A stretch of 64,000 bases of DNA from a virus (lineage: Duplodnaviria > Caudoviricetes). The DNA lies in IMG/VR virus record IMGVR_UViG_3300020049_010034, positions 1 through 64,000 of that record, one strand, 5' to 3'. The translations under genes and the position numbers were made by a program. The first letter of the stretch is position 1. Each line of letters begins with the position of its first letter. Positions 3,995 through 56,200 of this stretch are shown one piece after another. The notes under the pieces are model-generated. The model was not told the origin of the DNA. It did no database searches and saw nothing but the letters and a program-made list of their open reading frames with translations.

Positions 3995-4022
3995 AAAGAT
4001 TGTCATTAATGAAATAGTATCA
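3995..4022 (-). promoter_or_regulatory. Putative promoter: TGATACTAT (4022-4014) followed by AATCTTT (4001-3995)
   Basis: The same two motifs occur in the same order at 52102-52073, upstream of the tail fibre gene. Confidence 0.5.
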
Positions 4023-7666: not shown

Positions 7667-7703
7667 TGATATAGTTTAAACAGGTACTGCTTATATAGTA
7701 TCA
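7667..7703. promoter_or_regulatory. Divergent extended -10 promoters: TGATATAGT (+, 7667-7675) and TGATACTAT (-, 7703-7695)
   Basis: Both motifs lie in the 61-bp gap between divergent groEL and helicase genes. Confidence 0.5.
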
Positions 7704-9272: not shown

Positions 9273-9287
9273 CCACGAAGGAGTTTC

Positions 9288-10316
9288 ATGGCAGACCAGC
9301 ATCAGTACGACCCGAACTTAAAGTTACTAGCCCAGCAATTGACAAAAGATCTGGTTACTTCTATTGATTTTTCCCAAAGGGATTCGGTCAAAAAAATGAC
9401 CGACGCCGAGGAAAGTTTTAGAAAAGCCGTCATCAGATCTTCGCAGGCTCATGCAATATACGCACAATTTATCATAGATATCGCGGTACATCGAAAAAAC
9501 CGACTTGCTGCGAAGCCCTACTTTAGAGAGAAAGCTCCCGTGTTTAGTAAAAAAATAACCCCAGCTATTAAAAATGGTGACGTCAAAGCTTTACAGCAAT
9601 TCCATATCAATTACAATCTGGTTTCCTACATCAAGAAAAACTGGAAAGGGTCTTTGCCAAAAATAGCGCAAACCCATTACAACAAGATTGTTTACTACCG
9701 TAATGAAATCATTAAGCATAACATACCTTTAGCTATCAATAGAGCTAAGATTTTCTACAAAAAAGTTCCCAAAAGTTACCTGACGCTAATGGATATGGTT
9801 TCGATTGCCAATATGGGTCTAGTCTCTGGTGTAGATAAGTTTGTCGGAGACTGGAGCAAAGTATTTAATGGGGTTTGTATCGGCAGGATGGTAGGTAATT
9901 TGATCGCAGGGTATAGCGACACTATGCTATACTTATACCCAAGCGATCGCGCTTTGCTGTATCGAGCGAACGCTCTAAGGAATCGATTGAAGCTTGAGAC
10001 AATGGAGGATCTTACCAAGGCCATCAACGAAAGCTACGTTGAGGATAGAAAAAACGGAATAAAAACACCCTTTAAAAAGGTTACCGTCGCTGCCGTTTCC
10101 CACGTTTTACAAGCTGCGTCCCCTGTTAGCACCCACCAGACAAAAACGAACGAGGAAGGTGATACATTGGATGTAAACGTGTCCGCTTACTGTTCTGACG
10201 AGGACGTTGAAAAGAATGCTCTTGACAAGGACTTACGCGAAAAAACAGCGACAGCTTTAAAACAGATCGATATAATTCATCAAAAAGTAATAAAATTACG
10301 AGGAGTTAGCTTATGA
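9288..10316 (+). CDS. Phage sigma70-family sigma factor (regions 2, 3 and 4.1; no region 4.2)
   Basis: RNEIIKHNIPLAINRAKIF (2.1), LTLMDMVSIANMGLVSGVDKF (2.2), ETMEDLTKAIN and AASPVS (3), LREKTATALKQIDIIHQKVIKLRG (4.1), then stop. Confidence 0.8.
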   Translation: MADQHQYDPNLKLLAQQLTKDLVTSIDFSQRDSVKKMTDAEESFRKAVIRSSQAHAIYAQFIIDIAVHRKNRLAAKPYFREKAPVFSKKITPAIKNGDVKALQQFHINYNLVSYIKKNWKGSLPKIAQTHYNKIVYYRNEIIKHNIPLAINRAKIFYKKVPKSYLTLMDMVSIANMGLVSGVDKFVGDWSKVFNGVCIGRMVGNLIAGYSDTMLYLYPSDRALLYRANALRNRLKLETMEDLTKAINESYVEDRKNGIKTPFKKVTVAAVSHVLQAASPVSTHQTKTNEEGDTLDVNVSAYCSDEDVEKNALDKDLREKTATALKQIDIIHQKVIKLRGVSL

Positions 10317-10621
10317 AATATTCTATGAATGACACTTTTATTGTTGAACCCTACCAACAAGGACAAGGGCTTAAATCGAGCGTCAAAAGCGGGTTTGCTT
10401 ATATCGCTCAAAAGCAAAATTTAGAGCCGTTGAAGCTTTTAGTGGATGCAAAGATCGACGGAGAGTTTATTTTAGCGGGTTCTACTATTTATGTTGCTGA
10501 GGATGTCCTTACTACGATGGACTGGGCGAAAAAAATCAAGACTTCGGACTTGACGGACGGCAAAGAATTTATTATCATTGAGAAAAGGTATGTATCTGCC
10601 ATAGGTACGGAAAGGTCTTAA
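10313..10621 (+). CDS. GroES-like (Cpn10) co-chaperonin, divergent
   Basis: 102 aa; N-terminal MNDTFIVEP (cf. LHDRVIVK), mobile-loop-like KSGFAYIA, C-terminal DGKEFIIIEKRYVSAI (cf. DNEEVLIMSESDILAI). Confidence 0.62.
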   Translation: MKYSMNDTFIVEPYQQGQGLKSSVKSGFAYIAQKQNLEPLKLLVDAKIDGEFILAGSTIYVAEDVLTTMDWAKKIKTSDLTDGKEFIIIEKRYVSAIGTERS

Positions 10622-11562
10622 TGCAGTTCCTGATCGTAGGCGACCCTCACGCCCAACCAAAAAATCTAGCTGACATGGAAAAGCTGGTAAACTTTATCGC
10701 AAAAAAGGCCAAAGGTGTCGACTATATCGTACTCATGGGTGACCAGAACCATTTCCACAACGTGGTTTACGCCACCGTTCAGAATTTTTGGTTAAAAAGT
10801 TTGCAGAAGCTAAGCAAGGTTGCCAGAGTCGTTATGATTCGAGGTAATCACGATCAAAGCAGTCATCAAGAAAACGCGGATAGTTCCCTAGAGGTGTTTA
10901 AAAGTTTAGAGAATGTTGTCGTTGTCGATGAGCCGATTTTTATTGCGGATCACCTGTTCGTTCCATACTACCACGACGAAAGTTCTTTTAAAAAGGTTTT
11001 AGCTCCTGCCTCCTATCTATGGATGCACCAGACTGTGGACGGATCTCAGTACGAAGGCGGCTTTTACGCTCCTGACGGGTTTAGCCTAGATCTTTTTGAG
11101 CCCTACAAAAAAGTAATTTCGGGTCATATCCATAAAACTCAGACGATCAGAAATATCCACTATGTAGGAACCCCAAAATGGGATACCAAGTCTGACGCCA
11201 ATGAGAATAAAGGTATTTGGCTTTGGGATGATGAGTCCGACAAAATGGAGCACATCCCTACTGAGTCGATTCTTACCCCTATATATGAGCGAGCTTGGGT
11301 TGAGGGAGAGGAAGAACCTTCTGACCTAAAAGACTTAAAAGGAATCGTTTACTTAAACTTGATAGGCACTGGAACGTGGATTGCGTCGGTGTCAAAGAAA
11401 AATAAAAACAAATACCGTATTGTTCCTAAGCCAACGGACTCGATTTTAAAGACTGTAGAAAAAAAACAGATAGTGAAATCTTTTTCGGATTTTTTAAAGG
11501 CCAACTTACAAGAAACTCAGGCGATCGAGATAGAAAATTTTGTAGGATCTTTGGAGGCTTAA
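10621..11562 (+). CDS. Mre11/SbcD-like metallophosphoesterase nuclease
   Basis: GDPH, MGD, RGNHD, MHQ, SGHIH and YVGTP motifs. Confidence 0.88.
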   Translation: MQFLIVGDPHAQPKNLADMEKLVNFIAKKAKGVDYIVLMGDQNHFHNVVYATVQNFWLKSLQKLSKVARVVMIRGNHDQSSHQENADSSLEVFKSLENVVVVDEPIFIADHLFVPYYHDESSFKKVLAPASYLWMHQTVDGSQYEGGFYAPDGFSLDLFEPYKKVISGHIHKTQTIRNIHYVGTPKWDTKSDANENKGIWLWDDESDKMEHIPTESILTPIYERAWVEGEEEPSDLKDLKGIVYLNLIGTGTWIASVSKKNKNKYRIVPKPTDSILKTVEKKQIVKSFSDFLKANLQETQAIEIENFVGSLEA

Positions 11563-11930
11563 TGACTAAAACTCTGGATCCTCAGAAGTATTTGGAAGAA
11601 CTAAAACAAGGTGCAATCCTATCCTCAGCTTTTGCCTCTATCCAAATCGATAATCTAAAACTATATCCTGCGGCGATGTTTCCAGACCTAGAGTGTGAAC
11701 TTCACTGGGATCTAAAGGTCGAAGGGGATGACAAAGGCTGTAGCGTCACATATAATTTTTTGCTCCCAGACGCGAGTAGCGAGATATCATTTTACAATGT
11801 GGAAAATTTTGAAAAAAGACTAGAATTCATAATCAAAGCGGTCAGGACATTGCTATGGTCTGATACAAAGGTGGAGTTTAAAGCAAATGGAAAACCAGTT
11901 AGTAGACTTGAAAGCCGATCAGATAGTTAA
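11562..11930 (+). CDS. Hypothetical protein
   Basis: 122-aa ORF coupled to neighbours. Confidence 0.6.
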   Translation: MTKTLDPQKYLEELKQGAILSSAFASIQIDNLKLYPAAMFPDLECELHWDLKVEGDDKGCSVTYNFLLPDASSEISFYNVENFEKRLEFIIKAVRTLLWSDTKVEFKANGKPVSRLESRSDS

Positions 11931-12582
11931 CTCTCTTACCCCCGAGCCGATTAAAACCAGTAACTCAGTTGCTATAGCGGATCCTATCCTGTCTTTTTTT
12001 ACGGAAAAAGAACAAGAGAAGATTTTAAAGTACATGGACGACGGCCTACCTAACATCATCAAGCTAAATGACGTAAATTTGGCTAGAATGCAAGATATGT
12101 TTATGGAAGGCTTTTCCTATGCCGAAATATCAAACCGTATTCGCGTTAAGATCGAGGGGGTTTTGTATTGTGCTTATAAATATAAATGGCCTGAAATAAA
12201 AAACAAGAAATTGGATGAAATTGGCGGCCAGTTAGAAGAAAAATACCGAACTGCCAAGCTAGAAAGTGCCAGCTTTATCTCAGAAATGATTCAGGCTTGG
12301 CATGAGTATTACCGAGGCATTATCGAAACCTATAGATCAACTAAAGACAGAAGCGTCATGGACTCCATGGACTTGAAGCATATCGACAAATACTTTAAGG
12401 CTGTCGAACTATTAGACAAAATGATGAGTAAGCAGCAGTCCTCAGAAAAACCAGTAATTAGCCTGCCAGAGGGTGGAACGGTTACGTCGAGCGGAAACAC
12501 GCTAACCATCACCCCCGAAGTCAAAGAGACGAGCGAAATTTTAAGATTATTAGCGGAACTTAATAAATCTAATAATAAATAG
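11887..12582 (+). CDS. HTH protein, possible terminase small subunit
   Basis: MFMEGFSYAEISNRIRVK...YKYKW is HTH-like and is followed by a helical region; function inferred. Confidence 0.4.
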   Translation: MENQLVDLKADQIVNSLTPEPIKTSNSVAIADPILSFFTEKEQEKILKYMDDGLPNIIKLNDVNLARMQDMFMEGFSYAEISNRIRVKIEGVLYCAYKYKWPEIKNKKLDEIGGQLEEKYRTAKLESASFISEMIQAWHEYYRGIIETYRSTKDRSVMDSMDLKHIDKYFKAVELLDKMMSKQQSSEKPVISLPEGGTVTSSGNTLTITPEVKETSEILRLLAELNKSNNK

Positions 12583-12673
12583 TGATCGTTTTGGTCGGAC
12601 AATGATAATCTATATAGTAGCGATGTGAAGTTTTTATTTCTTTCACATCCCCTTCACATCTTGAGGAGAAAGT

Positions 12674-13435
12674 ATGCTTTCAAGATATGTGAGATATATA
12701 GCGATCCTTTTACTGCCAATTTTTTTGGCTGGAAGCGTAGGCATTGCAAAACCCATCAAACCTAGAACTGACAAAGACCTATTCAAGGTTACGGTCAGAA
12801 TCTTGAATAAGGATGAGTCTGGCGGAGGGACTGGATCGATTCTTGAATCCAGCAAAAGGGGTAGCGTAATCCTAACGAACGACCATGTCTGTGAGGTTGT
12901 CGAAAAGGGAGGGGTAGTAGACCCGCCAAGCCATCAAAAAACACCTATCAGAGCTATCAAGAGAGACTCCGAGCATGATCTTTGCTTGATCTTGGTGAGC
13001 GCCGATTTAGGCGTAGATCTCTCGATCGCCAGCGCATCCCCAGAAGGAGGAGACTCCGCCGTCATAGCAGGACATCCGTCTCTGATGCCTACCATAATAA
13101 CTAGGGGGCACTTCTCCGAATCAATAATGATAAAAGTTCAGTACGGCTCAAGAGAGTGTACCGAAGAAGACAGGCAGGATCCCAAAAACGCCTTCTACTG
13201 CATGATCTACGGGCGATTGCCTTTAGTCAAAGAAAGGGAAGCTTTGGTGATCTCGGCGACTATAATGCCCGGTAGTTCTGGCAGTCCTGTTTTTAACGAC
13301 CGTGGAGAGATAGCCGCTGTCGTGTTCGCAGGGCGTGGAGAGCTTGGGTACGCGTTAGCTGTTCCTTTAAGCTATATTTGGGACTTCATGGATAGATCTT
13401 CTGTCATGAAGTGGAGTCGGGTTTCTCTTAATTGA
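12674..13435 (+). CDS. Secreted trypsin-like (S1) serine protease
   Basis: Hydrophobic N-terminal signal; LTNDHVC (His), HDLCLI (Asp), PGSSGSP (Ser). Confidence 0.9.
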   Translation: MLSRYVRYIAILLLPIFLAGSVGIAKPIKPRTDKDLFKVTVRILNKDESGGGTGSILESSKRGSVILTNDHVCEVVEKGGVVDPPSHQKTPIRAIKRDSEHDLCLILVSADLGVDLSIASASPEGGDSAVIAGHPSLMPTIITRGHFSESIMIKVQYGSRECTEEDRQDPKNAFYCMIYGRLPLVKEREALVISATIMPGSSGSPVFNDRGEIAAVVFAGRGELGYALAVPLSYIWDFMDRSSVMKWSRVSLN

Positions 13436-14069
13436 GAGGAATTGTCTCGTCGTATAGGTGTCGGTAGTAATAAAGCGTCCCAGACGTGCCGACACCTACA
13501 CCGATGTTGTATCCAAATCCTAAATATACGGTTCCATACTCAAGCAGCTTCTTTAGGCTTGGAGGATCTTGCGTTAACCCAAACCAGTCGCTAAGATCTG
13601 TACCAACCTCTACAAACGTGCTGGCTCCTACGCCGATAGACGCGCCAGTCTCCCAACTAGCAAAAGCTCCAGAGGCAGAGTAAGACAGGCAATCACCAAA
13701 ACAGGCGGCAACAAAAAACTCAATTTTATACTGTTCCGCCATCCCTGCGGTGATCCCGTACATATCGTAAACAGAATATTTTATAGCGTTGTTCTCTATA
13801 CCGATATTAGTTTGCATCCCTCCACAGACTCCGACTCCTTTTTGGCAACGCGCAAGAACGCCAACTGACAGGGCTGTAGGGTAGATACTCATTTCCGCAA
13901 TTCTAACTTTTAGATTTTTTGATATGTCTTTAGCATATTCTTGGGCTGGCTCTGGCAATGACTCGATAGCCTTGTTTAAGACTATTTTATACTCTTGCTT
14001 TGTTAGCGGTTTAGCTTCTGCTTGATTCAGAAAAATAGATAACAAGATCCCAAGAAATGCTCCCATCAA
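13428..14069 (-). CDS. Secreted Gly/Cys-rich hypothetical protein
   Basis: Signal peptide ending AEA; Gly-rich alternating beta-strand patterns. Confidence 0.6.
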   Translation of the reverse strand: MMGAFLGILLSIFLNQAEAKPLTKQEYKIVLNKAIESLPEPAQEYAKDISKNLKVRIAEMSIYPTALSVGVLARCQKGVGVCGGMQTNIGIENNAIKYSVYDMYGITAGMAEQYKIEFFVAACFGDCLSYSASGAFASWETGASIGVGASTFVEVGTDLSDWFGLTQDPPSLKKLLEYGTVYLGFGYNIGVGVGTSGTLYYYRHLYDETIPLN

Positions 14070-14123
14070 AAACTCCTTTACCTTATATAGAAGGTGAGTG
14101 ACAGATTGCTATTATCTTAAATA

Positions 14124-14771
14124 CTACCCCTGAGAATCAATCCACCCTAACGCTTCCGATACTGTTGGCCACTCATTTACAAAAACTTTCTTAATCATTT
14201 CCGCTATATCTCTATGCTCCTTCTGTGTACCCGATGTCGTCCTCAATTGAATATAGTGAATCCAATTGCGGCAATTGTTAGTCATATACAAAGTGCTTTC
14301 TGTAGACTGCGGCAATAAAAATCTAGCACATTCTTTAGCTATTCCTTTTGTAATGGCTTCCTCGTATAGGGAGAATGATAAAGAAGAAATCTTATTTTGA
14401 GCGTTTTTAAACCACTCATTAGTTTCATCAGAAAGATCGTTAATACTGTTTTGGCGATTTTTTGTATCCTGACGTCTCGCCTCATAGATAACAGTCTTAG
14501 TAGGGCTGGCGTATCTTTGACTGAATTCTTGGAAAGTAGCCGAACGGTGTCTTAATATTTGAGCAGCGATAGCTCTAGAGGTTTTTATCTCTACTGTAAG
14601 GGAGGCTCCTTCAAACACAGACCAATGTTGGTGTTTTATACAATATGCTAGTAATTTTGCATAGTTGGGGTTTTCTTGATTCTCAGGGTTAGAAACTCTG
14701 GCAATATAAGCCATTTGTTTTTCCCCGTCTTTTGTTGATGTCACATACCTTACAGCTTCTTCGTGGTTCAT
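14124..14771 (-). CDS. thyX: FAD-dependent thymidylate synthase
   Basis: HWSVFE, RHRSATFQEFSQRY ThyX motif, KECARFLLP, TQKEHR. Confidence 0.96.
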   Translation of the reverse strand: MNHEEAVRYVTSTKDGEKQMAYIARVSNPENQENPNYAKLLAYCIKHQHWSVFEGASLTVEIKTSRAIAAQILRHRSATFQEFSQRYASPTKTVIYEARRQDTKNRQNSINDLSDETNEWFKNAQNKISSLSFSLYEEAITKGIAKECARFLLPQSTESTLYMTNNCRNWIHYIQLRTTSGTQKEHRDIAEMIKKVFVNEWPTVSEALGWIDSQG

Positions 14772-14803
14772 AATCTACCCCTTTTCTTTTCTATAGTTTT
14801 AAT

Positions 14804-15031
14804 TTATCCCTCGCAAGCCGCGCATTCATCTTTGTTTCTTGAAGCAAGATCCCCTTTTAAAACCCCGTCAGATCTTAGATAATACAAGCCCTTTAGACCC
14901 GACTTCCAAGCTTCGATATGAGCCTCGTTTATATACTTAGGAGAGCTATTGCTTGCAAAAAACAAGTTAACCGACTGAGACTGACAGATATGCTGCTGGC
15001 GTTGAGCCGCCTGTCCTATTTGATCGGACAT
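14804..15031 (-). pseudogene. C-terminal fragment of class I ribonucleotide reductase alpha (NrdA), still an open 75-aa ORF
   Basis: QAAQRQQHICQSQSVNLFF, HIEAWKSGLKGLYYLRS and terminal ECAACEG match the NrdA C-terminus; overlaps the end of nrdJ. Confidence 0.8.
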
Positions 15032-16884
15032 ACGCCCCCGTCGCACTCTAAAGACGACTGAAGGTTTCCGTCAAAAGACTCTCCGCTGTCAAACTCGATC
15101 GGTTTTATCTTGCTCGCCTTTTTTTCGTATTCTTCTTTTGAGATCGCCTCTTTTGGAGCCTGCTTGAATCCGTGATCGTTATGACACAAAAAGCTTATTG
15201 ACTTCAAATACTTTAGATTGTTCCCTAGCCACTCTTTGATTTGTGGAAGCTCTTCTTTTCGATAGTATACAGTAACGGAGACGGCCTGATCAGCCCAGTG
15301 TCTTTGAGCCATAAGAAGAACATCCAGCTGCTTCCAAGTGTTAAAATCTTCGTCCGCGCAAGGTGTTCCTTCGGGTGCCTCTAAGTAGAAATCAACCACC
15401 AGAGTGTTGTGATCGAGGGTTCCATCGAACCTTACCACGGGCTCCATCGAGTGTCCAGCCGCTTTCAAAACTGGAATCAAAGGATCGTTGGCCGCAAACC
15501 TTACTCTTTGGATCATATGTCTAGAATAAGCGGGATGGATTCCTTCGCATCGCTGATCAAGCAACTTAGAAACTGTTCCAGATGGCTTGACGACTGTGGT
15601 TCGAATGCTTTCAGGAATGCCTAGCTCTTTTGAGTAACTTACGTTCTCCTTTTGAATCTCGCTATAAGCAAGATCCAAGGTCTTGGGATTAAATAAAGGG
15701 CTTTCTAGGCATCCCGTGATGCCAGTGCCAATACGTCGGTTTTTACCAACCACATCATTGATAATGTCGTGGTGATACAGCTCGGTAGTAACTCGCTTCC
15801 CATACCTGTGCATCAAACGAGCGGCTTCCAGAAATTCCGCTTCCGAATCCAAATTCCCTAGAGCGATCTCTTGCAAATTACAGGGCTCTCCGTTTTCAAG
15901 TGTGGCCTCAGCACAAGGATTCATTCCAATAGCTGTGTCTTTCTTTTTCTCACCCATTCGAGCAAACGCTTGGATGTTTTTTCGGTTAATGATGCCGAAA
16001 GGCTCTCCGTTTTCATAAGTTTTCCAAAAAAGAGGGTGAGCGTCTTCCGTGTCATCCAAAACCACCGAAAGGTTGGCGAAGGCTCGATATGTCGGAACCT
16101 GACCTAGATCCCATCTTTTTGACTTCAAGTATTCTTTATCGAAAGCGTCGCCTAGTATGATGATAGCACTGCGGCGGACGTTCCCAGCCACCACCATTTC
16201 GCCAGTGGAGCAGACGATATCCATGGCGTCTATCGGGCGAATATGCTTGCCAGCTCTGACGTCTAGAATTCCTTTGATGGTTTCGATAAATTTTACCAGT
16301 GGCTGAGGCCCTGATGCCGTTCCTCCGAACCCTTGAATTCGCTCTCCGTACCCTCGAATACAAACGGTAGAGTACGAAAACCCTTTACCTGTCTTGAAAT
16401 AAGATTCGATAGTGCGGCGTAATAGCTCGCACCATCCCTCTCGACTGTCTGGAACGATGAAGTCGGCGTCTTTTGTGTCTTTGTGCTCTATAAAAACATC
16501 TTTTTTTACTTTCGGGAGCTGAGATACAAAACGGTGCTCGATTGACATTCCTACTCCGCCTCCCAGCATTAGAAGATCCATTGCGAGAGGAAAGGAATCA
16601 ACAGTATCTGCGGCCACAAACCAGCAGTTATTGAGCGCCACTCCGCCAAGTCGCTTGTGAGACGGTGATCCCGAATACCACAAGCCCCTGCCAGCAGGGA
16701 TAGCCTTTCTATTGAGCATAAAATAACGAAGTCTCTCTATCTCTTGGGGGGAGACGTTGTGCCCCCTAACATTACCCCCTATCACCCGTTCAATCGTGTC
16801 AGGCCAGTTTTCCACAACCCCCGTATCTTTTCTGGCATAGGTTCTTTTGTATACTACTTTTGCTAAATTCGACCAAGACTTCAT
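15016..16884 (-). CDS. nrdJ: Class II (B12-dependent) monomeric ribonucleotide reductase
   Basis: KRTYAR, PAGRGLW, LNNCWF, VPDSREGW, GGTASGP, AGNVRRSA, NPCAE, KPSGT, C-terminal CDGGVCPIK. Confidence 0.93.
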   Translation of the reverse strand: MKSWSNLAKVVYKRTYARKDTGVVENWPDTIERVIGGNVRGHNVSPQEIERLRYFMLNRKAIPAGRGLWYSGSPSHKRLGGVALNNCWFVAADTVDSFPLAMDLLMLGGGVGMSIEHRFVSQLPKVKKDVFIEHKDTKDADFIVPDSREGWCELLRRTIESYFKTGKGFSYSTVCIRGYGERIQGFGGTASGPQPLVKFIETIKGILDVRAGKHIRPIDAMDIVCSTGEMVVAGNVRRSAIIILGDAFDKEYLKSKRWDLGQVPTYRAFANLSVVLDDTEDAHPLFWKTYENGEPFGIINRKNIQAFARMGEKKKDTAIGMNPCAEATLENGEPCNLQEIALGNLDSEAEFLEAARLMHRYGKRVTTELYHHDIINDVVGKNRRIGTGITGCLESPLFNPKTLDLAYSEIQKENVSYSKELGIPESIRTTVVKPSGTVSKLLDQRCEGIHPAYSRHMIQRVRFAANDPLIPVLKAAGHSMEPVVRFDGTLDHNTLVVDFYLEAPEGTPCADEDFNTWKQLDVLLMAQRHWADQAVSVTVYYRKEELPQIKEWLGNNLKYLKSISFLCHNDHGFKQAPKEAISKEEYEKKASKIKPIEFDSGESFDGNLQSSLECDGGVCPIK

Positions 16885-17538
16885 CTATCGCTCCTCGTTG
16901 TTTAAAATTCTGTCCAAATCAAATTCCATATCTGTTTTGGCTGAATCGTTTTGTGTGTTCTTAAGTAAAGTATCGTAAGCAATCCCCAAACAGATAGCGT
17001 CAGCCTCATTATTGTGTTTCATGAGTAGCTTTAAGCCAAACTTCTCATTAGCAATCCTGACGTTAACGTGCTTCTTTGTAACCTTGCCGATCCTCTTCCC
17101 GTTTTCTTTAACGACCCTAACCCCTTTTTGGTTAGCTGTCTTGATCTTTTTATTCTGATCTTTCTCAGCCTTCGTCATCTTCGCACCAACCAGAACTCGC
17201 CACTCCCCTGTCATAAAGTATTTACAGCCAACGCCTTCCTCGACGATCAAGGTTGCGAGTTGATAGTGGATCCACTCTAGCATTTTTTGTGATAGATGGT
17301 TTTTACTACCCTTTGACGTCTCCTCGATAACAAGGACGTCGGGCTTAAAGGTTTCGATCAGATCTTCGACCTCGTCAAAAATCTGATGAGTCCACTCAAG
17401 CATCCACTCGGGATACGGAAGATCCTTTGGACGCTCAACAGATATTGTGCCGTAGTCTTGTAGGTTGAGTAGGCTTTCCTTCCGACGAAAGAAAGCCCAC
17501 CCTATGTGAGATGATACGTCAAGAGTTAGTATTTTCAT
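16885..17538 (-). CDS. RuvC-like Holliday junction resolvase
   Basis: ILTLDVSSHIGWA, VLVIEE, NNEADAICLG. Confidence 0.85.
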   Translation of the reverse strand: MKILTLDVSSHIGWAFFRRKESLLNLQDYGTISVERPKDLPYPEWMLEWTHQIFDEVEDLIETFKPDVLVIEETSKGSKNHLSQKMLEWIHYQLATLIVEEGVGCKYFMTGEWRVLVGAKMTKAEKDQNKKIKTANQKGVRVVKENGKRIGKVTKKHVNVRIANEKFGLKLLMKHNNEADAICLGIAYDTLLKNTQNDSAKTDMEFDLDRILNNEER

Positions 17539-17567
17539 GTTGGGAGTTGAACCTAGTAGATTGTGAT

Positions 17568-17846
17568 CTATTGAAGAGACCCGCCTTTTTCACCAATCAA
17601 AGAATGTAAGTATTTGATTTTTAAGTCAATTGCTTTTAGAGTATCGCGGTAAGGACCTTCAATTTCTTTTTTAAGCTCAATAACTTCTTGTAGTTTTTGA
17701 TTACTTGACTTGCTTTCTAGAACATTTTCACGTTCACCTACATAATTCAAAATGCGGTTTTTCATTTGATCAACACTCATCCCCACGACCGCGTCGACGA
17801 ATTCTGGCATTTCTTTTTCTAATTTGGCTTTTTGCTTCGGGTTCAT
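17568..17846 (-). CDS. Hypothetical coiled-coil protein
   Basis: 92-aa ORF in operon. Confidence 0.6.
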   Translation of the reverse strand: MNPKQKAKLEKEMPEFVDAVVGMSVDQMKNRILNYVGERENVLESKSSNQKLQEVIELKKEIEGPYRDTLKAIDLKIKYLHSLIGEKGGSLQ

Positions 17847-18172
17847 TTTTTCTCCACTTCTATTTGTTTTTTGAGAGCGTCTCTCAGTGTTAAATACTCT
17901 ACCGTAGCCATCACCATTGAATAGTGCGGTACGTCAGAGTGGTCAGTTTCTTTTCCTGAAATCACCAAAGGTAATTTCGTATCCAAGAAAATTCGGTGAG
18001 CGGTCGCCTTGATTAAATTAAGATCAGTCCGCGTAAAATTTATGGTAGCTCTGTCTAGTATAGTGATTTTTTCCAAAAGGTTTACTAAAAGCAAAACTTT
18101 TTCTTCTTGCCCGAGCGTTTCGGCTGTAGCAAGATATTCACGCACCTGTTGTTTTAAAAAATCTCTATCCAT
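17843..18172 (-). CDS. Hypothetical protein
   Basis: 109-aa ORF with overlapping start/stop. Confidence 0.6.
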   Translation of the reverse strand: MDRDFLKQQVREYLATAETLGQEEKVLLLVNLLEKITILDRATINFTRTDLNLIKATAHRIFLDTKLPLVISGKETDHSDVPHYSMVMATVEYLTLRDALKKQIEVEKK

Positions 18173-20273
18173 GTGACACCTCGCTGTATTGGCCTTTCCT
18201 TGTTACTGTTATCTTATCATTTACCAAAGCTTTTGTCTCCTCAGAATGATCGACGATGATTAATTTTTTGCCATCGCAGTGTTGAGACAGAATTGTTAAG
18301 ATTTCTTCTTTATTCACAGAGTCCAAACCCGTGAAAGGTTCGTCCAAAATAAAGATATCTAAGCCGCTACCCATCATAAGCTCTAGAACATCCACGACTG
18401 CAAGGTCTACCGCTAGGTCTACCGACGCTCTTTCACCGCCAGAAAGGGATTTGATCGGGATCCCGATTTCGTTGTCTACGGACAGAACGGCATTGATCTC
18501 AGCTTTGACCGTGCCAGACTTAGTCTCTTTAAAGGACTCAAACTGTATTGAGGCCGTAGACATATTTGGAATGCGTCGTAAAATTGCGGTGGCGCGATGG
18601 GCGATATCAGCTAGGGCGTCTTGAAAAAGCTGGGAAACAAAACTTTTCAACATTTTTAAAGAAAGTTCCGCAATCGCTAGTTGTGATTCCGCCTCTTCCA
18701 GCTGATTTTTTTGATCCAGAACTCTGCCGTAAGCAAAAGCCTTGTTTTCGTTTAGCTGCTTGATATTTTTTTGATACTGCGATAAAGCGGCTTCATAAGC
18801 AGCCTTAGAGGTTTTAATGTCGTTGACACGGACGGACAAGCCTGCGATATCGTTTGAAAGAGCTGACTCCTTTTGATCGAATTGGCTTTGAGTGTTTTTA
18901 ATAAGCTCTTGATATTTTGCGTTAATTTCATATTTGCTTTGCTTTTCCTTTTCAGCTAAGATTGCAAATTCGCTATTGACGGCCTTGGACTTCCGATCAA
19001 ACTCAGACAATGCTTGAGCAAGATCAGCCTGTGCTGAAACAAGGTCTGAGGAATCAAAGGTCTCGATTAGTTTTTTGGCGATAGACAGCTTTTCCTTAAG
19101 AACATCAAGCTCTTTGGCTAAGCTATCCGAACTAGGTAGGCGCTCCAAGCGTTCTATTTCCTTCTTAAGAGCCTTTGCTCGGTTCAGATAACTATCAAAA
19201 GTCTGGTCAGCCTGTCCGCCCTCCCACGCCTGAGTGCAGGTAGGGCACTTTTTATCCTTGATGCGGAGAATATGCTCTCTAATCTCCGTAAAATTACGTT
19301 GAATAGACTGAAGGGTTGCTCGATCTTTCTCTATGTTCTTGATTTCATTCTCTTTTTGAGAAACGGTGAGTTCTAAAGCTGAAACTTTAGAGGCTAAATC
19401 CTTTTGCTCGGACTGAATCTTATATTGCAATGCCTTTACCTTAGACTCTAAGCTCACTACTTGGGAGCGATCTACGGGTTTGGGATACTCTGGAGAGGGG
19501 ACTTGGTTTAAAGCTTTCTGTAGCTCGCTCTGGTAGTCATCCCTTGTTTTTTGATAGTTGGCCTTAAGTTCCAGTAGCTTTTCTTTAAGCTGCTTTAAAT
19601 CGGCCTCTAGAGCGTCTAGGGGTTCTGATGTCACGGGGGCTTCTGGAGCCTTAGAGGCTAGAAGATCCTCTTCCGACCTCTTAAGGGCGTGTGACTGCAT
19701 CTCCAACCCTTGCTTTGCCATGTCGCGCTTTAAAGCTAGAACTTTAGCTCTCTCACCGACCAGATCAGATTTTCGAGTCCAAACCCCAGCCCCAAGAACG
19801 TCGGACAGAAATTCATAAGACTCGGTTGGACGCATGGATAAAAAGAAGCCGCCCTCGCCTTGGCGTTTATGAAACATTTTTCTCAAGTATTCTGGTTTAA
19901 TTCCAATCAGCTCTTGTAGCTTTTCTTCGGCCATTTTTATACTGCCGTCGATGATAGCCCCGTCTACCTGAATAGAAAGTCCTTTTCCCGATCGGGAAAC
20001 AGAAAACTCTTTACCGTCCTTCTCAAGCAACGCAGATACGGCTATCTTGTCTTTAGTCAGCCGACTTTGGAGTATCGAGGCAGGCGTATCATTGCACCCA
20101 AATAAGAATTCAATGGCTTGGAATACCGTTGACTTTCCAGATCCAGAAGACCCGTTACTTAACTCGTTAATTGCGTCAACCTGAACTAGATGGGATAGGG
20201 ATTCAAAATCGATCGACTGGGGGCTCACAAACCGTCCGATGTTTTGAAAAGTAAGCTGCTTTATCTTAATCAT
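18165..20273 (-). CDS. Rad50/SbcC-like SMC ATPase
   Basis: GSSGSGKST, long coiled coil with CPTC zinc hook, LSGGE signature, LDEPF, IVDH. Confidence 0.92.
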   Translation of the reverse strand: MIKIKQLTFQNIGRFVSPQSIDFESLSHLVQVDAINELSNGSSGSGKSTVFQAIEFLFGCNDTPASILQSRLTKDKIAVSALLEKDGKEFSVSRSGKGLSIQVDGAIIDGSIKMAEEKLQELIGIKPEYLRKMFHKRQGEGGFFLSMRPTESYEFLSDVLGAGVWTRKSDLVGERAKVLALKRDMAKQGLEMQSHALKRSEEDLLASKAPEAPVTSEPLDALEADLKQLKEKLLELKANYQKTRDDYQSELQKALNQVPSPEYPKPVDRSQVVSLESKVKALQYKIQSEQKDLASKVSALELTVSQKENEIKNIEKDRATLQSIQRNFTEIREHILRIKDKKCPTCTQAWEGGQADQTFDSYLNRAKALKKEIERLERLPSSDSLAKELDVLKEKLSIAKKLIETFDSSDLVSAQADLAQALSEFDRKSKAVNSEFAILAEKEKQSKYEINAKYQELIKNTQSQFDQKESALSNDIAGLSVRVNDIKTSKAAYEAALSQYQKNIKQLNENKAFAYGRVLDQKNQLEEAESQLAIAELSLKMLKSFVSQLFQDALADIAHRATAILRRIPNMSTASIQFESFKETKSGTVKAEINAVLSVDNEIGIPIKSLSGGERASVDLAVDLAVVDVLELMMGSGLDIFILDEPFTGLDSVNKEEILTILSQHCDGKKLIIVDHSEETKALVNDKITVTRKGQYSEVSHG

Positions 20274-20502
20274 TACGAGGCTTTGACCATTCCTTCCTTA
20301 TATCAACAATGTCAGGGTGAACTTCTACTGCCCGAGACTGACCGTTGTCCACGGTCATCTTTCGGGTTGAGGCTGGAGCGCCCATCTCAATTACCATAGT
20401 ACCAGCACAAATAACGCAAGTCCAGATCTTTTGATCGGTTGGCTTGATTAATTTTTTTTCAACTCTTCCGCAACTTTTACATTTTACAGTTATTAAGGCC
20501 AT
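20266..20502 (-). CDS. Small zinc-ribbon protein
   Basis: CKSC and CVIC pairs. Confidence 0.65.
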   Translation of the reverse strand: MALITVKCKSCGRVEKKLIKPTDQKIWTCVICAGTMVIEMGAPASTRKMTVDNGQSRAVEVHPDIVDIRKEWSKPRND

Positions 20503-20506
20503 AATG

Positions 20507-20517
20507 TGATACTATCA
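20507..20517. promoter_or_regulatory. Palindromic TGATACTATCA: putative bidirectional extended -10 element
   Basis: Reads TGATACTAT on + and TGATAGTAT on -, within a 29-bp gap between divergent operons. Confidence 0.5.
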
Positions 20518-20531
20518 TCTAGAGGTGACTT

Positions 20532-21419
20532 ATGTCAAAGAATTTTTGGGAAGATGAGGAAATAGATTCCGAAGTTCCATCTGAAGAAGAATCGGAACAG
20601 ATCCTAACGCAAAGCAATGATGAGGAACAGGAAGAGGCTTACGAAGGCGCTCTTGACGATCTCCAAGAAGCTTTGGATGAGGAAGAGGAGCAAGACCTTT
20701 CCGATGAGGAAGTGATGTCCAACGCCCGCCTGCGTTTGGAGCAGGGTCGCCTGTACGAGATGCTAATGGATCATAATTTATTTGATGGCGTTTCCGCCGA
20801 CAGTCGCGCTGTAAAAAATGTTGAACGCGAATTCAAAACTTTTATTAAAGAACGGCTAGAGATTCTACTAGGAATCAAGACGGAACAAAAGAAGACGGCT
20901 TTACAGGAGGTCTTCACTGAAACGGAGATTTCTCTACTAAAGGGATTAGTTGGACGCGTAATCAATAAAGAGTCCTATGCTCCCCAACCATCCCCAGCGA
21001 TCAAAAAAGAAGTGGCTCCAGCTCCTAAGCTGAAGTCCTTGATTTTAAACGAACCTATTAAAAAAAAAGTAGCTGAGCCTATCGTTCAAAGATCAGCTGC
21101 CCCGATGCGCCCCTCAACGAAGGTAACTGTAAAAAAAGAAAAACAAAAAAACATACAGAAAAAACCGCCAGCGCATGATAAGTTAATCTCAGACATGAAC
21201 GCCCAAGAACTTTTAGAGTTTTCAAAAGCAAGAAAGAATAGGTATTATAAAGCCATGCCGCCCAAAAGACTAGCAATGCCTAGCGCGGATCAGGCCATGA
21301 TGCACTACGCTCAAACGCCTGATTACTCTCATTCGGGACTGCCACTTGGTGGGATTCTATCAAACATTCAGGCTCAAGTAGGAGTGCAGGATGTTGGATA
21401 CCCGGGCGATGATATTTAA
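20532..21419 (+). CDS. Hypothetical protein with acidic N-terminus
   Basis: 295 aa; GAGGTG Shine-Dalgarno upstream. Confidence 0.65.
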   Translation: MSKNFWEDEEIDSEVPSEEESEQILTQSNDEEQEEAYEGALDDLQEALDEEEEQDLSDEEVMSNARLRLEQGRLYEMLMDHNLFDGVSADSRAVKNVEREFKTFIKERLEILLGIKTEQKKTALQEVFTETEISLLKGLVGRVINKESYAPQPSPAIKKEVAPAPKLKSLILNEPIKKKVAEPIVQRSAAPMRPSTKVTVKKEKQKNIQKKPPAHDKLISDMNAQELLEFSKARKNRYYKAMPPKRLAMPSADQAMMHYAQTPDYSHSGLPLGGILSNIQAQVGVQDVGYPGDDI

Positions 21420-21445
21420 TAACGTAACAATGACAAGGAGATAAA

Positions 21446-21991
21446 ATGGAAAATCAACAGCAAACACAACTAACGGCAGCTCAACGGCTGACACGCCTAG
21501 AAAACGCTTTAAACATGGTTGACGAAACTATGGGGCAAATTGGAAACCAATTTGGACAAATGGTAGAGTTAATTAGCGAGCTTCGATCACGATCGGAAGC
21601 TTTGGAAAGGGTTTTAGAGGGAGAAGACAAAGGATTGAAAGCACGGGTAAACTTAGAGGTTGTCTCCATGCGTGTGAAAAAGCTAGACGAGCGAGTGCAG
21701 GAATTAGTAGCAAGCGGATTAGTAATCCCAGCTGACACCGTTTCTGAAAAGTCTTTTTTGGTAGGCCGAGAAGTGTCAGTAACTGACGGATCCTTAGTTT
21801 CCCCGCGATCTCAGTTTTGGGTATCAGAATTCCCTAAAGTGACAAGCTTAGTGGTTGGTAAAAAGATTGGCGATCAATTGCTATTTACGGAAGATGCTAA
21901 GGCCGCTTTTGAAATCGAGTCTATTTATGATTTCAAAGCTCCAGAAGCTGCGCCAGTAGAAGCTGAGAAAGCTGCAAGCGATGTCGGCTGA
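21446..21991 (+). CDS. Hypothetical coiled-coil protein
   Basis: 181 aa; AAGGAG Shine-Dalgarno. Confidence 0.65.
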   Translation: MENQQQTQLTAAQRLTRLENALNMVDETMGQIGNQFGQMVELISELRSRSEALERVLEGEDKGLKARVNLEVVSMRVKKLDERVQELVASGLVIPADTVSEKSFLVGREVSVTDGSLVSPRSQFWVSEFPKVTSLVVGKKIGDQLLFTEDAKAAFEIESIYDFKAPEAAPVEAEKAASDVG

Positions 21992-22355
21992 TAAACAGCT
22001 AGAAGCATTAAAGCTCCGCCTGTCAGAGCAAGAAAAGAAACTTGCCTCGGCGGAGCTAATGCTCCAAAAGACTCATAATCAAAGAGCCGAGATAGAGGCC
22101 AAGATCGAAGGCTTTAATGACAATCTGGGGGAACTATCTAAAGCCAAGATAGCTACTCTCAAAGGTTTTTTGGAAGCGAAAGGCCATCAAAAAGCAAGCC
22201 AGCTTTTACTATCCCAAATCCTCAATCAAGTCAAGGATTTAGATACTTTAGTTTCATGCCAAAAAGAACTTATAAGACAGATGAGATCGGAAATAGAAAA
22301 CAAGGAAAAGGAAATGGGCTCTAATGTAGTGCCGTTTAGAAGGAAGCATGGATAA
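21981..22355 (+). CDS. Hypothetical coiled-coil protein
   Basis: 124 aa with heptad pattern. Confidence 0.6.
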   Translation: MSADKQLEALKLRLSEQEKKLASAELMLQKTHNQRAEIEAKIEGFNDNLGELSKAKIATLKGFLEAKGHQKASQLLLSQILNQVKDLDTLVSCQKELIRQMRSEIENKEKEMGSNVVPFRRKHG

Positions 22356-22578
22356 GAAAAAACAACAAATGGTAGACAAAATAAACGCAGACCCAGATTT
22401 TATCAACGCACCTCGTTTTGACAATTCAATGAAAAAAGCTTTGGCTGAAAGGGACGGATTTGGGGATCGCGTCATAGCTCAAATGCTACAAATTAAAGAA
22501 AAAGAAGTTGAAGAAATATATCAAAGTGCTATACTGAAGTTAAGAGCCATATTAGGGCTTGGAAAAGAGGGTGCGTGA
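22348..22578 (+). CDS. Stand-alone sigma70 region 4.2-like HTH protein
   Basis: DGFGDRVIAQMLQIKEKEVEEIYQSAILKLRAIL matches the pattern EGxTLEEIAxxLGVSRERVRQIExxALxKLR. Confidence 0.65.
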   Translation: MDKKKQQMVDKINADPDFINAPRFDNSMKKALAERDGFGDRVIAQMLQIKEKEVEEIYQSAILKLRAILGLGKEGA

Positions 22579-23198
22579 AAAGATATATAGCGTTTGATTT
22601 TGAAACTGGAGGGATGAATCCTAAAGAACATCCCATACTTACAGGATATTTTACTATTCTAGATGAAAATCTAGTTCCTATCGACAACTTAGAAATAAAA
22701 ATTGCCCCAGAGTTTCCTTACTTGGATGTTCAAGAAGGGGCTTTGAAGGTCAACGGTATAGATATGGAGACGCACCTTCTATCCGCACAACCTTTAAAAT
22801 CAGTAAAAGACAGCCTTGTCCAATTCCTTGAGAAGCACTACTCAAAGAAAAAAGGCGATCGTTTACGCCCTCTAGGGCAAAACATCTTATTTGATTTGGG
22901 TTTTCTATTTGAGCAACTAATCCCGAAGGACACTTGGGAGCGTTATTGCCACTATGTAATTTACGACACGAAGATATATTCGGATCTTTTAAAAGAAGCT
23001 GGGATTCTTCCTCCAGAAATTTCAGATCTAAGCTCGCTTGCGAAGTTTTACCATGTACCAGAGTTTTCAGCCCACGATGCGAAAGCTGACGTCCTAGCTA
23101 CCGTTGAAGTTTATCGCAATATGCTTGACTCTTTGCGAAAACTAGCGCAAGGTAAAAGTATGCCAGAGCCAGATTTGATAAGGTTATTAGAGCAATGA
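22575..23198 (+). CDS. DEDDh 3'-5' exonuclease (DnaQ/epsilon-like)
   Basis: FDFETGG, GQNILFDL, YDT, AHDAKADV; directly upstream of dnaE. Confidence 0.9.
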   Translation: MKRYIAFDFETGGMNPKEHPILTGYFTILDENLVPIDNLEIKIAPEFPYLDVQEGALKVNGIDMETHLLSAQPLKSVKDSLVQFLEKHYSKKKGDRLRPLGQNILFDLGFLFEQLIPKDTWERYCHYVIYDTKIYSDLLKEAGILPPEISDLSSLAKFYHVPEFSAHDAKADVLATVEVYRNMLDSLRKLAQGKSMPEPDLIRLLEQ

Positions 23199-26100
23199 GA
23201 TTACCAACATCGATACATACCAGAACCGAGTCGTACCTTACGGCTTCGATGCACCAGAAGTTTATCAAAAAAGCTAAAGAGCTTGGTCGAACCCATTTTG
23301 CGTATGCTGATATTGGATACACCTCTGCTTTTTTAAGAACATTTGAAGCTGCTAAAAAAGATGGTCTTGGTTTTATCGGTGGGGTTACCCTGTTCTTTAG
23401 AGATCTGGATTGCGAATTTTACAAAAAGTCAGGCCAAAGAAATAAGTTTTTTATGTTCAACCTGTACTTTCACACCCAAGAACAGCTTTCAAAGTTTTCA
23501 GAACTCCAATCCGCTTACCGTGAAAAAATTACATACTTTGGCGAAGAGTACCCCGTATTTAATTGGGGTGACCTGCAAAAAGCTGCGGACATCGGCCTTA
23601 CTTTTGTACATCACAACGTACAAGATATGGCACTTATGTACATTTTAATGCACAAGCCCGAATTTGTACGACCCATAGTTGAAAAAATTAGCAAGATGTT
23701 TGGCTCACGTCACTATCTATCGATATACGGAGTTCCAGTCTCCCACTTCCCAGCAACCGTGGTTAAAATTCAGACGGTAGATCGCGAGATCCAGATGTCT
23801 GGGGATGCTTATATCAAAACCGAAAAGGTTCGCGGTATTAGAGCGGTTGATTTTGTCGACGAGTATCAAAAGCATCAGAAAATTATAAGCTACCAAGTGG
23901 CTGGAGTTACCAGATACTTGGACACTCCCGTCATAAAAGCGGAACGCTTCGACGGAAAGGTTCGATTTAGCTTTCCTGATCCTCAGCTAGAGTGTAACGA
24001 GCTGGTTGTTCAGATCGGGAAAGAGATGAGTATACCTGTTTTATACTCGGATGACGCTTTTTATGTCGAAAAAAACGACAAGACATCTCAAGACGTAAAG
24101 CTCGCCCAAGATAAACGACGTGAAGCTCGCGATCGCTATATGCAGACTACTGAAGAGGCGGTGTTTCACATCAACGAAGCTGGTGGGAATCCTGTAGAAG
24201 TATTTGCAAATATCGAACAGTTTGCAAATCAGTTTAAGGATTTCGACCTAAAATTCGAAGTAAAGCTACCGTCCTACCCATACGCTTTGCAGTCTATTGT
24301 GAAAAGAATTAAAGATCTAGGTAGACTTCCAGACGATCAAAGGTATCGAGATCGTTTAAAATACGAGATCGATGTTTTGCACAGTAACGGCAAGGTCGAT
24401 CTCTTACCTTATTTTATGCCCATCATCGAGGTAACGGATCACTACCATAAAAGTGGATACCTAACCTCTGCTGGCCGTGGATCTGTCGGAGGATGTCTTC
24501 TAGCTTACCTGATCGGTATTACTGAGGTGGATCCAATTAAATACGATCTGTCTTTTGAACGGTTCCTATCTTTGGATCGTATTTTAGCTGGCAACCTACC
24601 AGATATCGATCACGACTCTCCGAGCAGGATCCCATTAGTAGGCGAGGATGGCAAGTCGGGCTTTCTATTTGAACGATGGGGTGACGGGTGCGCCCAGATC
24701 TCGACTAGAACGAACATCAGACTAAAACTTGCTATCAAGGACGTACATCGTGCCTTACACGGATCCGTTCCGCAAGAAATCGAAAAACTAACCAAAGGCT
24801 TACCATCTGCTCCTCAAGGGGTTAGCGATTCCGACTATGTGTTTGGATACACCGATCAAGACGGCACTGAACATAAAGGACTGTTTGAAATTGACGAATC
24901 TTTGAGACGATATGCCGAGGCGTACCCAAAGGAATGGGAAGAAGTCAAGAAGATTATGGGTGTTAGCCGAGGGCTTGGAATCCATGCGGCTGCCTTTGTT
25001 TTATCGGACGAGCCTATTGCAAAAACCACTCCTGTTTTTGGCCGTGTGACTCAGTATGAAGCCAAGTATGTTGAGAAATCAGGACTTGTAAAATACGACT
25101 TTTTAGTTGTCAATCAGATCAACGACGTTCAAACCTGTCTCCGATTTATCACAGAAAAAAATAGAGGCTCTTTTGATACTGGGTATTTTGAACATAAAGG
25201 TAAACAAACTTATATCTGGGATCTCCCAGACGATCAAGATGTCTACAAGTCAGTTTGGGATGGAAATACTACGTCTTTGTTTCAAATCAACACTACCTCT
25301 ATGGCTCCATTCGTTCAAAAGATAATGCCTAGAAGTATCGAAGATTTGGCGGTTATCTTAGCCTTAGTTCGACCCGGGCCGCTTGACTACATTGATCCCG
25401 AAACAGGACGATCGATGGCGGAAGAGTATATCGAAAGAAGGAACGGAGGAGGATCACAACCGATCAAAGAAATGCTTTCTCTCTTACCAGAAACTTACGG
25501 TATTCAGATCTACCAAGAGCAAAACTCTAAAGTAGCCAAAGCTATCGGAAAGATGGACTCCATCGATGCGGAAAACCTGAGACGAGCTTTTGCCAAGAAG
25601 GACAAAAGAAAGGTTGAAGAATTTAAGCCTAAGTTCATGGCTGGAGCTATTGAAACGGTTGGGGAAGAGACCGCCAAGCAAATTTGGGCTCAGATGGAAA
25701 CTTCCAGTCGTTATAATTTTAATAAATCCCATGCAGTCGGGTATAGTTTACTAACTTACTCAACTATGTTTCTGCGCCATCACTACCCTTTGGAATGGTG
25801 GGCGGCAGTATTCACGAACGCCGAAGAGAAAGAGCTTAGCGAAGTTTTTTACAACCAAGTTAGGAAGTTTGTGCTTCCCCCAGATATTAACCTATCCGAA
25901 GAAGTGATGAAGATTGACTACAGCCGTGGAAAAATCGTTAGCAAGATCACGGCCTTAAAGGGTATCGGCAAGTCGGTTTCGGAAAAAATCGTAGCGGGTA
26001 GACCCTACACAAGCATCAAAGACTTGGTTAAAAGATGTCCTATCGGTTCTTCTGTCTTGAAAAAGATGGCGGTTGCTGGTGTTCTGGACAGTCTCTTCAC

Positions 26101-43254: not shown

Positions 43255-43287
43255 ATAGTATCAGCCTTTCCTATAGCTTTTCAACCA
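43255..43287 (-). promoter_or_regulatory. Promoter TTGAAA-N18-TACTAT with TG extension; likely leaderless transcript
   Basis: TGATACTAT ends 6 nt before the thioredoxin ATG, leaving no room for a Shine-Dalgarno. Confidence 0.5.
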
Positions 43288-52072: not shown

Positions 52073-52102
52073 AAAGATTCCTTTCCTATCGAAATAGTAT
52101 CA
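52073..52102 (-). promoter_or_regulatory. Putative promoter: TGATACTAT (52102-52094) followed by AATCTTT (52079-52073)
   Basis: Same arrangement as 4022-3995. Confidence 0.5.
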
Positions 52103-52127
52103 CATATAGAGTAAACGCAATCTGTTT

Positions 52128-56102: not shown

Positions 56103-56200
56103 ATAAGTCCTTGAAACTATTTGGTTTTAACCAATTCGCACCTTTTAAAAGTGTTTCGGTCTTACTTTAAGGGTATCACGATTAGTTTTAAAAACAAGGC

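Follow-up and report, generated by a model that had tools for sequence, protein, structure and literature searches.

A phage sigma-70-family factor that ends before region 4.2, and a conserved acidic mini-protein as the candidate second part of a divided sigma

Region 4 is as a rule an inseparable part of a sigma factor, and its region 4.2 helix-turn-helix reads the -35 element and helps to clamp the tip of the beta-flap of RNA polymerase. Here we describe a phage in which this arrangement appears to have been given up. The stretch analysed, referred to below as the window, is the first 64 kilobases (kb) of a 96.9-kb IMG/VR virus record (IMGVR_UViG_3300020049_010034; completeness estimate 60%), and it encodes both a sigma-70-family protein that stops directly after region 4.1 and, elsewhere in the same replication and nucleotide-metabolism block, an acidic mini-protein of 76 amino acids (aa) that resembles the missing part. 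Comparison of the sequences firmly establishes the sigma without region 4.2 as a fixed, clade-wide trait; the mini-protein is shown equally firmly to be a clade-wide, autonomous, acidic protein of sigma-4/LuxR-like type, and the relatives firmly show no other candidate for the missing region 4.2 part. We propose, with a probability of roughly 0.4, that the two proteins work together, either as a two-part sigma or as a sigma with a flap-binding co-factor. The two genes are as follows.

9288..10316, plus strand: truncated sigma-70-family protein of 342 aa, with a region 1.2-like N-terminal domain, regions 2 and 3, the linker and the 4.1 helices
22348..22578, plus strand: acidic four-helix mini-protein of 76 aa, with helices 3 and 4 forming a sigma region 4.2/LuxR-like helix-turn-helix

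The open reading frame (ORF) at 9288-10316 is a very divergent sigma-70-family protein. It is preceded by a GAAGGAG ribosome-binding site and has the C-terminus ...GGAGTTAGCTTATGA, and its TGA stop is overlapped by the ATG of the next gene, which bears out the translational coupling described in an earlier note on this DNA. A Pfam search with the ORF itself gave no match; PHROGs assigned it to phrog_351 (sigma factor, 2.9e-5). Over 30 family members, Pfam Sigma70_r2 was matched by only one (E 0.14), and the NCBIfam sigma models were matched by 29 of the 30 aligned homologues, with a best E of ~1e-7 and all scores far below the curated cut-off. Structural comparison points the same way: sigma factors fill all 49 best matches listed by Foldseek, in alignments of ~350 columns, and VIA-align returns Z-scores of 8.8-10.7 to domain 2 of many sigmas, including FliA with a root-mean-square deviation (rmsd) of 2.3-2.5 over 74-75 residues. 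The AlphaFold2 (AF2) model used there has a mean predicted local distance difference test score (pLDDT) of 70, rising above 85 in the N-terminal domain (residues ~30-150) and lying at ~64-72 for residues 160-190. With hhalign, the family alignment is continuous from region 1.2 through 4.1; profile positions 137-190 align to region 2 of RpoD, RpoS and SigA, and positions 240-342 to SigA 235-340, which covers region 3 and the 3.2 linker. The equivalent of region 2.3/2.4 (family consensus VFRSVCIGRMVGN) had been singled out for lacking the usual aromatic residues, and in the gapped hhalign alignment they appear to be missing: across a 3-residue gap the consensus VFRSV---CIGRMVGN stands opposite FISYAVWWIRQ, with no Trp and an AF2 confidence below 50. 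Yet this is the most conserved segment of the whole sigma (0.87).

The source phage is a member of the Mx1-like group, with genomes of ~150-177 kb. Myxococcus phage Mx1 (169.6 kb) is the sole cultured relative in the phage collection; the metagenomic relatives reach 150-177 kb, some of them with terminal repeats. The Mx1 orthologue of the sigma, WNM70309 (OR576727.2), is annotated as 'putative RNA polymerase sigma factor' and is 35% identical (E 7e-51); it is truncated in the same place, and the gene order helicase-sigma-small gene-phosphoesterase recurs in Mx1. The JGI and Mx1 records name the family generically as sigma only, and the Mx1 genome announcement discusses neither the sigma, nor its truncation, nor the mini-protein.

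The place at which the sigma stops is well defined. Its C-terminal LREKTATALKQIDIIHQKVIKLRGVSL follows canonical sigmas over region 4.1 and then ends, three residues past the region 4.1 helix, with the consensus LPLLHRKVLxLKGVKI lying on FliA LPEREKLVIQL and on the SigA 4.1 helix. Several models agree on this boundary: family profile positions 300-341 align to FliA 157-198, residues 138-338 correspond to TIGR02937 positions 3-129 of 165 and residues 137-337 to SigBFG positions 4-189 of 227, and hhalign against four SigA proteins from metagenome-assembled genomes (MAGs) ends at 243 of 288, directly after 'LFFGIG' of region 4.1. The earlier description of a protein that follows sigma70 through 4.1 and then stops is thereby upheld. 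The missing portion amounts to ~36-45 residues, that is, the region 4.2 helix-turn-helix. All 30 aligned homologues share the end ...LPxxxRKVLxLKGVK[IL] in the same column, and the TIGR02937 coverage in six relatives, Mx1 among them, always runs from positions 1-3 to 128-130. Among viral contigs, 54/54 complete relatives (30-49% identity, including Mx1) end 0-5 residues past LKG[VIL]x[ILV], with the ATGA overlap present in most. Because all of these stop at the same place, the truncation is not a sequencing or assembly error and the stop codon is genuine. The last helix has a mean column conservation of 0.71, versus 0.46-0.50 for the preceding linker, with K333 and G339 invariant; since it is better conserved than the linker before it, its sequence suggests a retained contact interface. 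Read-through or frameshifting of the sigma into the next gene was also considered, and was rejected on the grounds that the next gene is GroES-like by eye and not a helix-turn-helix.

The mini-protein ORF is a gene in its own right, and a conserved one. A ribosome-binding site is present, the ORF shares 8 nucleotides (nt) with the gene before it, and it has a GTGA overlap with the dnaQ-like gene that follows. An exhaustive search was needed to see its family: a word-index search gave a single relative, whereas the exhaustive search recovered homologues in 159 clusters at E<=1e-3, nearly all of 64-122 aa. The family consensus reads I..DPDFI..P...NSLKK.L...P.G..D..IA..L.I.E.EVE..Y..A..KLR, in which a conserved DPDFI...NSL motif precedes the helix-turn-helix. 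The AF2 model is confident (pLDDT 92), with helices at residues 3-14, 28-34, 40-46 and 51-68. Two long matches were set aside, one of 730 aa as a spurious repeat match, and one of 218 aa, considered as a possible fused form, whose N-terminus is of low complexity and not sigma.

The similarity of the mini-protein to region 4.2 is consistent across methods, and weak. The ORF itself has no Pfam match at E<=1 and no PHROGs family. Among 50 members, eight match Pfam Sigma70_r4 (best E 8.8e-4) and 12 match TIGR02937 (best E 6.8e-5), residues 41-67 of the ORF corresponding to model positions 137-163. Against the PDB, the family profile finds the NarL C-terminal domain and region 4.2 of WhiG, FliA and SigF at E 0.02-2.7, and profile positions 38-70 align to FliA 204-236. 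In hhalign against 28 canonical region 4 segments the helix-turn-helix falls on region 4.2 (P=1e-5, probability 62%), and in VIA-align the rows covering residues 35-71 are largely sigma-4 domains, with an rmsd of 1.7-2.2 over 35-37 residues. The top BFVD match is a 115-aa phage 'RNA polymerase sigma-70 region 4' protein (E 0.055, template modelling (TM) score 0.59), and in the ESM Atlas PF04545 is assigned to 63-83% of the members of neighbouring clusters of small viral proteins. Foldseek against the PDB gave no match at E<=0.001 and only homeodomain-type rows, at E>1.

The recognition helix of the family differs from that of canonical region 4. At positions 51-53 and 55, which correspond to the canonical RERxRQ, 52-83% of the residues in 149 homologues are Asp or Glu and at most 11% are Lys or Arg, so that the replacement of the DNA-reading RERVRQ by acidic residues, first noticed in this one ORF, extends to the family. 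Because these positions are acidic family-wide, reading of the -35 element by the mini-protein is unlikely; judged from its residues, the protein probably does not read DNA at all, and the acidic positions fit a co-factor or decoy that does not bind DNA.

Three observations link the two proteins. They tile one sigma model without overlap, the sigma occupying TIGR02937 positions 3-129 and the mini-protein positions 137-163 of 165, and their FliA alignments are likewise adjacent, reaching 198 in the sigma profile and covering 204-236 in that of the mini-protein. They also occur together: a check for co-occurrence proposed at the outset found exactly one mini-protein gene in each of the 18 relatives that are at least 71% complete, and in Mx1 (E 1e-23 to 1e-31). 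The gene was present in 11/18 further records, including that of the most divergent sigma relative (35% identity); in the three records that were checked for this, the sigma lies within ~3-10 kb of a contig end. Mx1 carries its homologue immediately in front of dnaE, as an 80-aa ORF without annotation (OR576727.2, ~157455-157697, minus strand). Finally, no competitor for the missing part came to light. The complete relatives contain no other sigma, the TIGR02937 hits there being the truncated sigma, and no other conserved sigma-4-like protein was found in the complete relatives searched. The weak PF04545 and TIGR02937 candidates that they do contain are unrelated, are not conserved between relatives and have no counterpart in this genome.

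The mini-protein gene sits in a plus-strand operon in which three genes without assigned function are followed by the 76-aa ORF, dnaQ, dnaE and others.

22575..23198, plus strand: DnaQ-like proofreading exonuclease (phrog_192, 6.4e-20), with its GTGA overlapping the mini-protein stop
23195..26791, plus strand: DnaE-type DNA polymerase III alpha subunit (phrog_405, 8.4e-158)

The position directly upstream of dnaQ-dnaE, to which the earlier note had attached weight, is found here and, with respect to dnaE, in Mx1, and in 13/18 relatives the 1.5 kb that follow contain dnaQ or dnaE on the same strand; the remaining 5/18 have neither gene within that distance, and several relatives carry 0.5-1.2 kb of inserted DNA between the mini-protein gene and dnaQ. 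A DnaE-sized gene also adjoins the mini-protein gene in the contig of a distant homologue; the contigs of three distant homologues span 0.7-4.4 kb only. The linkage is thus conserved and not strict, and it fits a role in the replication module equally well.

A promoter-like word heads this operon. The extended -10-like TGATACTAT and its other copies lie at the following positions.

20507..20515, plus strand: extended -10-like TGATACTAT, 25 nt upstream of the first gene of the mini-protein/dnaQ/dnaE operon
4014-4022, minus strand: exact copy
7695-7703, minus strand: exact copy
43255-43263, minus strand: exact copy
52094-52102, minus strand: exact copy
20517, minus strand, and 56216, plus strand: near-copies
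93327, minus strand, and 95494, plus strand: near-copies beyond the window

The five exact copies in the window compare with 0.29 expected, and all are intergenic and oriented towards the downstream gene. If up to one mismatch is allowed, the genome has nine TGATACTAT sites, which precede predicted starts by 9-81 nt and head replication, chaperonin and other operons, that of the mini-protein among them; the helicase-sigma operon has only the variant TGATATAGT, ~45 nt upstream. No conserved -35 element was found upstream of the nine sites, and the word fits a sigma that does not read the -35 element. As a clade-conserved promoter it had to be dropped, the exact word not being conserved across relatives. 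Very short leaders are hinted at by several sites that stand no more than 9-25 nt away from the predicted start codon. Another word, GCAATCT/AGATTGC, is likewise enriched between genes; it occurs in six upstream regions, often beside TGATACTAT (~14100, 52110-52125, 56195-56205 and others), and may be an operator.

In the mechanism that we propose, the phage sigma would redirect the host RNA polymerase. It has kept the core-binding and -10-region domains (1.2, 2 and 3) together with the two 4.1 helices, and has lost the region 4.2 helix-turn-helix as a fixed trait of the family. The mini-protein, acting in trans, would be a surrogate for sigma-4, docked to the beta-flap, to the conserved 4.1 helix of the sigma, or to both; it would not read the -35 element, would stabilise the phage holoenzyme and would exclude region 4 of the host sigma, and the phage promoters would be of the -10 or extended -10 type only. 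The idea of a two-part sigma would explain why the two proteins tile so exactly and are always inherited together, why the orphan 4.1 helix is conserved and why the mini-protein is acidic; we infer the binding of the mini-protein to the sigma, its binding to the flap and the promoter class. In its fullest form, the proposal is that domain 4 of a sigma-70-family factor is provided in trans, throughout the clade, by an acidic mini-protein that sits at the beta-flap without reading DNA, and that expression of this mini-protein together with the replication genes ties late transcription to theirs; this we regard as more tentative still.

Known systems offer partial parallels. In T4, gp33 grips the helix at the flap tip, has no DNA binding of its own, directs acidic residues at the beta' zinc-binding domain and is structurally unrelated to sigma region 4 (PMC7892883). 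The likeness to T4 gp55/gp33 with gp45 lies in a phage sigma without the -35-reading domain combined with a separate small acidic protein, whose flap role would here be an analogous one, and in both phages the small gene lies among replication genes. The differences are considerable: the present sigma keeps 1.2, 2, 3 and 4.1, of which 3 and 4.1 are absent from the much smaller gp55, and the mini-protein has a sigma-4/LuxR-type helix-turn-helix, whereas gp33 does not resemble sigma region 4. Neither ORF matched gp33 or gp55 in the PHROGs or PDB lists, a result compatible with a distant relationship, and Pfam recognised no sliding-clamp gene among the neighbours scanned.

In Bacillus subtilis, SigO-RsoA forms a two-subunit sigma that is split within region 2, both parts taking part in promoter recognition. 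The arrangement proposed here would share with it the distribution of sigma function over two polypeptides, but the break comes after region 4.1 and the small part is probably not DNA-reading. T4 AsiA and gp39 of Thermus phage P23-45 are small phage proteins that target the sigma-4/flap contact, as the mini-protein would; they act, however, on the host sigma and not on a truncated phage sigma, and the PDB profile, Foldseek and VIA-align searches gave no sequence or fold match between either of them and the mini-protein. A study of P23-45 gp39 reportedly showed that it binds the beta-flap, as a small phage protein that rewires the flap/sigma-4 contact and switches the promoter class. Set against canonical region 4 (PF04545) and the LuxR/GerE proteins, finally, the mini-protein helix-turn-helix aligns to 4.2 and to the NarL C-terminal domain and the sigma C-terminus to 4.1; but the scores are below cut-offs, the basic DNA-contact positions are acidic in the mini-protein, and the N-terminal helix and the DPDFI...NSL motif of the latter have no counterpart.

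A number of observations weigh against a joint function. The sigma and mini-protein genes are ~10-32 kb apart where the distance was computed, and never adjacent; the mini-protein is tightly linked to dnaQ-dnaE and not to the sigma, and co-occurrence would be seen for any pair of core genes in a clade of phages with shared gene order. The word TGATACTAT heads diverse operons alike, and phage-sigma and host-sigma promoters are not separated by it. A family check on the mini-protein did return weak matches to sigma region 4, but all of these similarities are below the curated cut-offs and are common to the NarL/LuxR/GerE helix-turn-helix, from which they are not separable, and the structural Z-scores are low (<=3.2). 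Most directly, helix 28-34 of the model sits where the 4.1 helix would pack, and the protein folds confidently alone; on the model, it does not look like an incomplete fragment that needs the 4.1 helix. The small ORF had been taken to consist largely of the missing piece, and this survives for the helix-turn-helix, which aligns to region 4.2, but not for the whole protein, a four-helix domain with N-terminal helices and a DPDFI...NSL motif of its own. Because its own helix 28-34 fills the 4.1 place, a sigma-4 surrogate in trans is more likely than a true break after 4.1 into two parts that complement each other's fold. The literal split originally put forward is not supported; nor was a fused ancestor found, homologue searches having yielded no fused sigma-mini form and no longer mini-protein forms at E<=1e-3, which is weak evidence.

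Some of these points would find a natural place in other explanations. The truncated sigma could act alone on extended -10 promoters, which do not require region 4.2, with the mini-protein as an independent modulator of RNA polymerase that makes no contact with the phage sigma; it might, for instance, be a decoy that blocks the beta-flap or ties up a host factor, so that host transcription from -35-dependent promoters is shut off. We hold this to be rather unlikely, though it draws on the presence of TGATACTAT at operon heads with no conserved -35 element, on the autonomy and acidity of the mini-protein, and on precedent: Kumar et al. (1993) reportedly found that sigma70 without region 4.2 can start transcription from extended -10 promoters, and P23-45 gp39 reportedly binds the flap. 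It leaves both the strongly conserved 4.1 helix of the sigma and the exact tiling of one sigma model unexplained, and the flap binding that it invokes is a prediction only. Unlikely, too, is a role of the mini-protein in the replication module that has nothing to do with sigma, either as a theta-like subunit of DnaE-DnaQ or as a helix-turn-helix regulator of the replication operon. The translational coupling to dnaQ-dnaE, the place directly upstream of dnaE in Mx1, the same-strand dnaQ or dnaE within 1.5 kb in most relatives, the DnaE-sized neighbour of the distant homologue and the fact that the gene never adjoins the sigma are all in keeping with it. However, the sole recognisable similarity of the mini-protein is to the sigma-4/LuxR helix-turn-helix, the insertions before dnaQ and the five relatives lacking both genes nearby fit it poorly, and the acidic recognition helix speaks against a classical DNA-binding regulator.

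We consider it distinctly improbable that the mini-protein is an anti-sigma or timing factor, which would hold the phage sigma inactive through its 4.1 helix until the replication proteins have been made. The conserved amphipathic C-terminal helix of the sigma, the co-expression of the mini-protein with the replication operon and the strict co-occurrence could be read in this way, but no known anti-sigma family was matched in the profile or structure searches made, and the same interaction between sigma and mini-protein is assumed as in the two-part or co-factor model. The chance that the whole arrangement is an artefact, that is, a mistake of sequencing or assembly or a newly formed pseudogene, accompanied by a chance small ORF, is negligible: it is ruled out by the common end of the sigma in the 54 complete relatives and the 30 aligned homologues, by the 159 clusters of the mini-protein, by the ribosome-binding site and by the coupled stops.

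To our knowledge, T4 gp55/gp33 is the only well-studied phage system in which region 4 is replaced in trans, and it does so with an unrelated fold. If sigma and mini-protein do act as a pair, they would represent a second, independent, clade-wide solution to the same problem, a divided phage sigma of gp55/gp33 type that is split elsewhere and has a small subunit resembling sigma-4, and the holoenzyme contacts at the beta-flap would be separable from the reading of the -35 element. Mx1 and Myxococcus xanthus offer a ready experimental system. Whether the pairing is right or wrong, two findings stand: a large family of sigma factors, as yet unannotated, that naturally lack region 4.2, and a conserved small gene that was missed in the Mx1 annotation.

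The surrounding genes belong to the replication and nucleotide-metabolism block. On the plus strand a helicase gene is followed by the sigma, the 102-aa GroES-like gene and the SbcD-like gene; the other features recognised nearby are listed with these.

5888-7654, minus strand: GroEL-like chaperonin (Pfam Cpn60_TCP1, 2.3e-31)
10313..10621, plus strand: 102-aa gene downstream of the sigma, with an ATGA overlap with it; GroES-like by eye, with no profile confirmation
10621-11562, plus strand: SbcD/Mre11-like nuclease
12674-13435, plus strand: trypsin-like peptidase
14124-14771, minus strand: ThyX
15016-16884, minus strand: class II (B12-type) ribonucleotide reductase
18165-20273, minus strand: SbcC/Rad50-like nuclease

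The phage thus carries a GroEL-like chaperonin gene and, translationally coupled to the sigma gene, a second gene that is GroES-like by eye. The nucleotide-metabolism and nuclease set is partly common to Mx1, which has a phosphoesterase gene after that of the sigma and also encodes a recombination endonuclease; the annotated ribonucleotide reductase of Mx1 is of class Ia, as against class II in the window, and the stretches of Mx1 that were examined showed neither ThyX nor the peptidase. Strong Shine-Dalgarno sites (GAAGGAG, AGAAGGAA and AGGAG) occur at 9270-9290, 22335-22350 and 10296-10316. The MAG contigs that contain relatives have been binned as Flavobacteriaceae, Saprospiraceae, Deltaproteobacteria or a candidate-phyla-radiation bacterium; in Flavobacteriaceae and Saprospiraceae, Shine-Dalgarno sites are mostly absent, and the host assignments for the relatives that are based on binning look unreliable. 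The complete relatives, including Mx1, also encode sporadic, non-conserved proteins, several of them with a helix-turn-helix and some, by eye, of homing-endonuclease, serine-recombinase, XRE or LuxR type, which suggests mobile-element insertions that differ between genomes.

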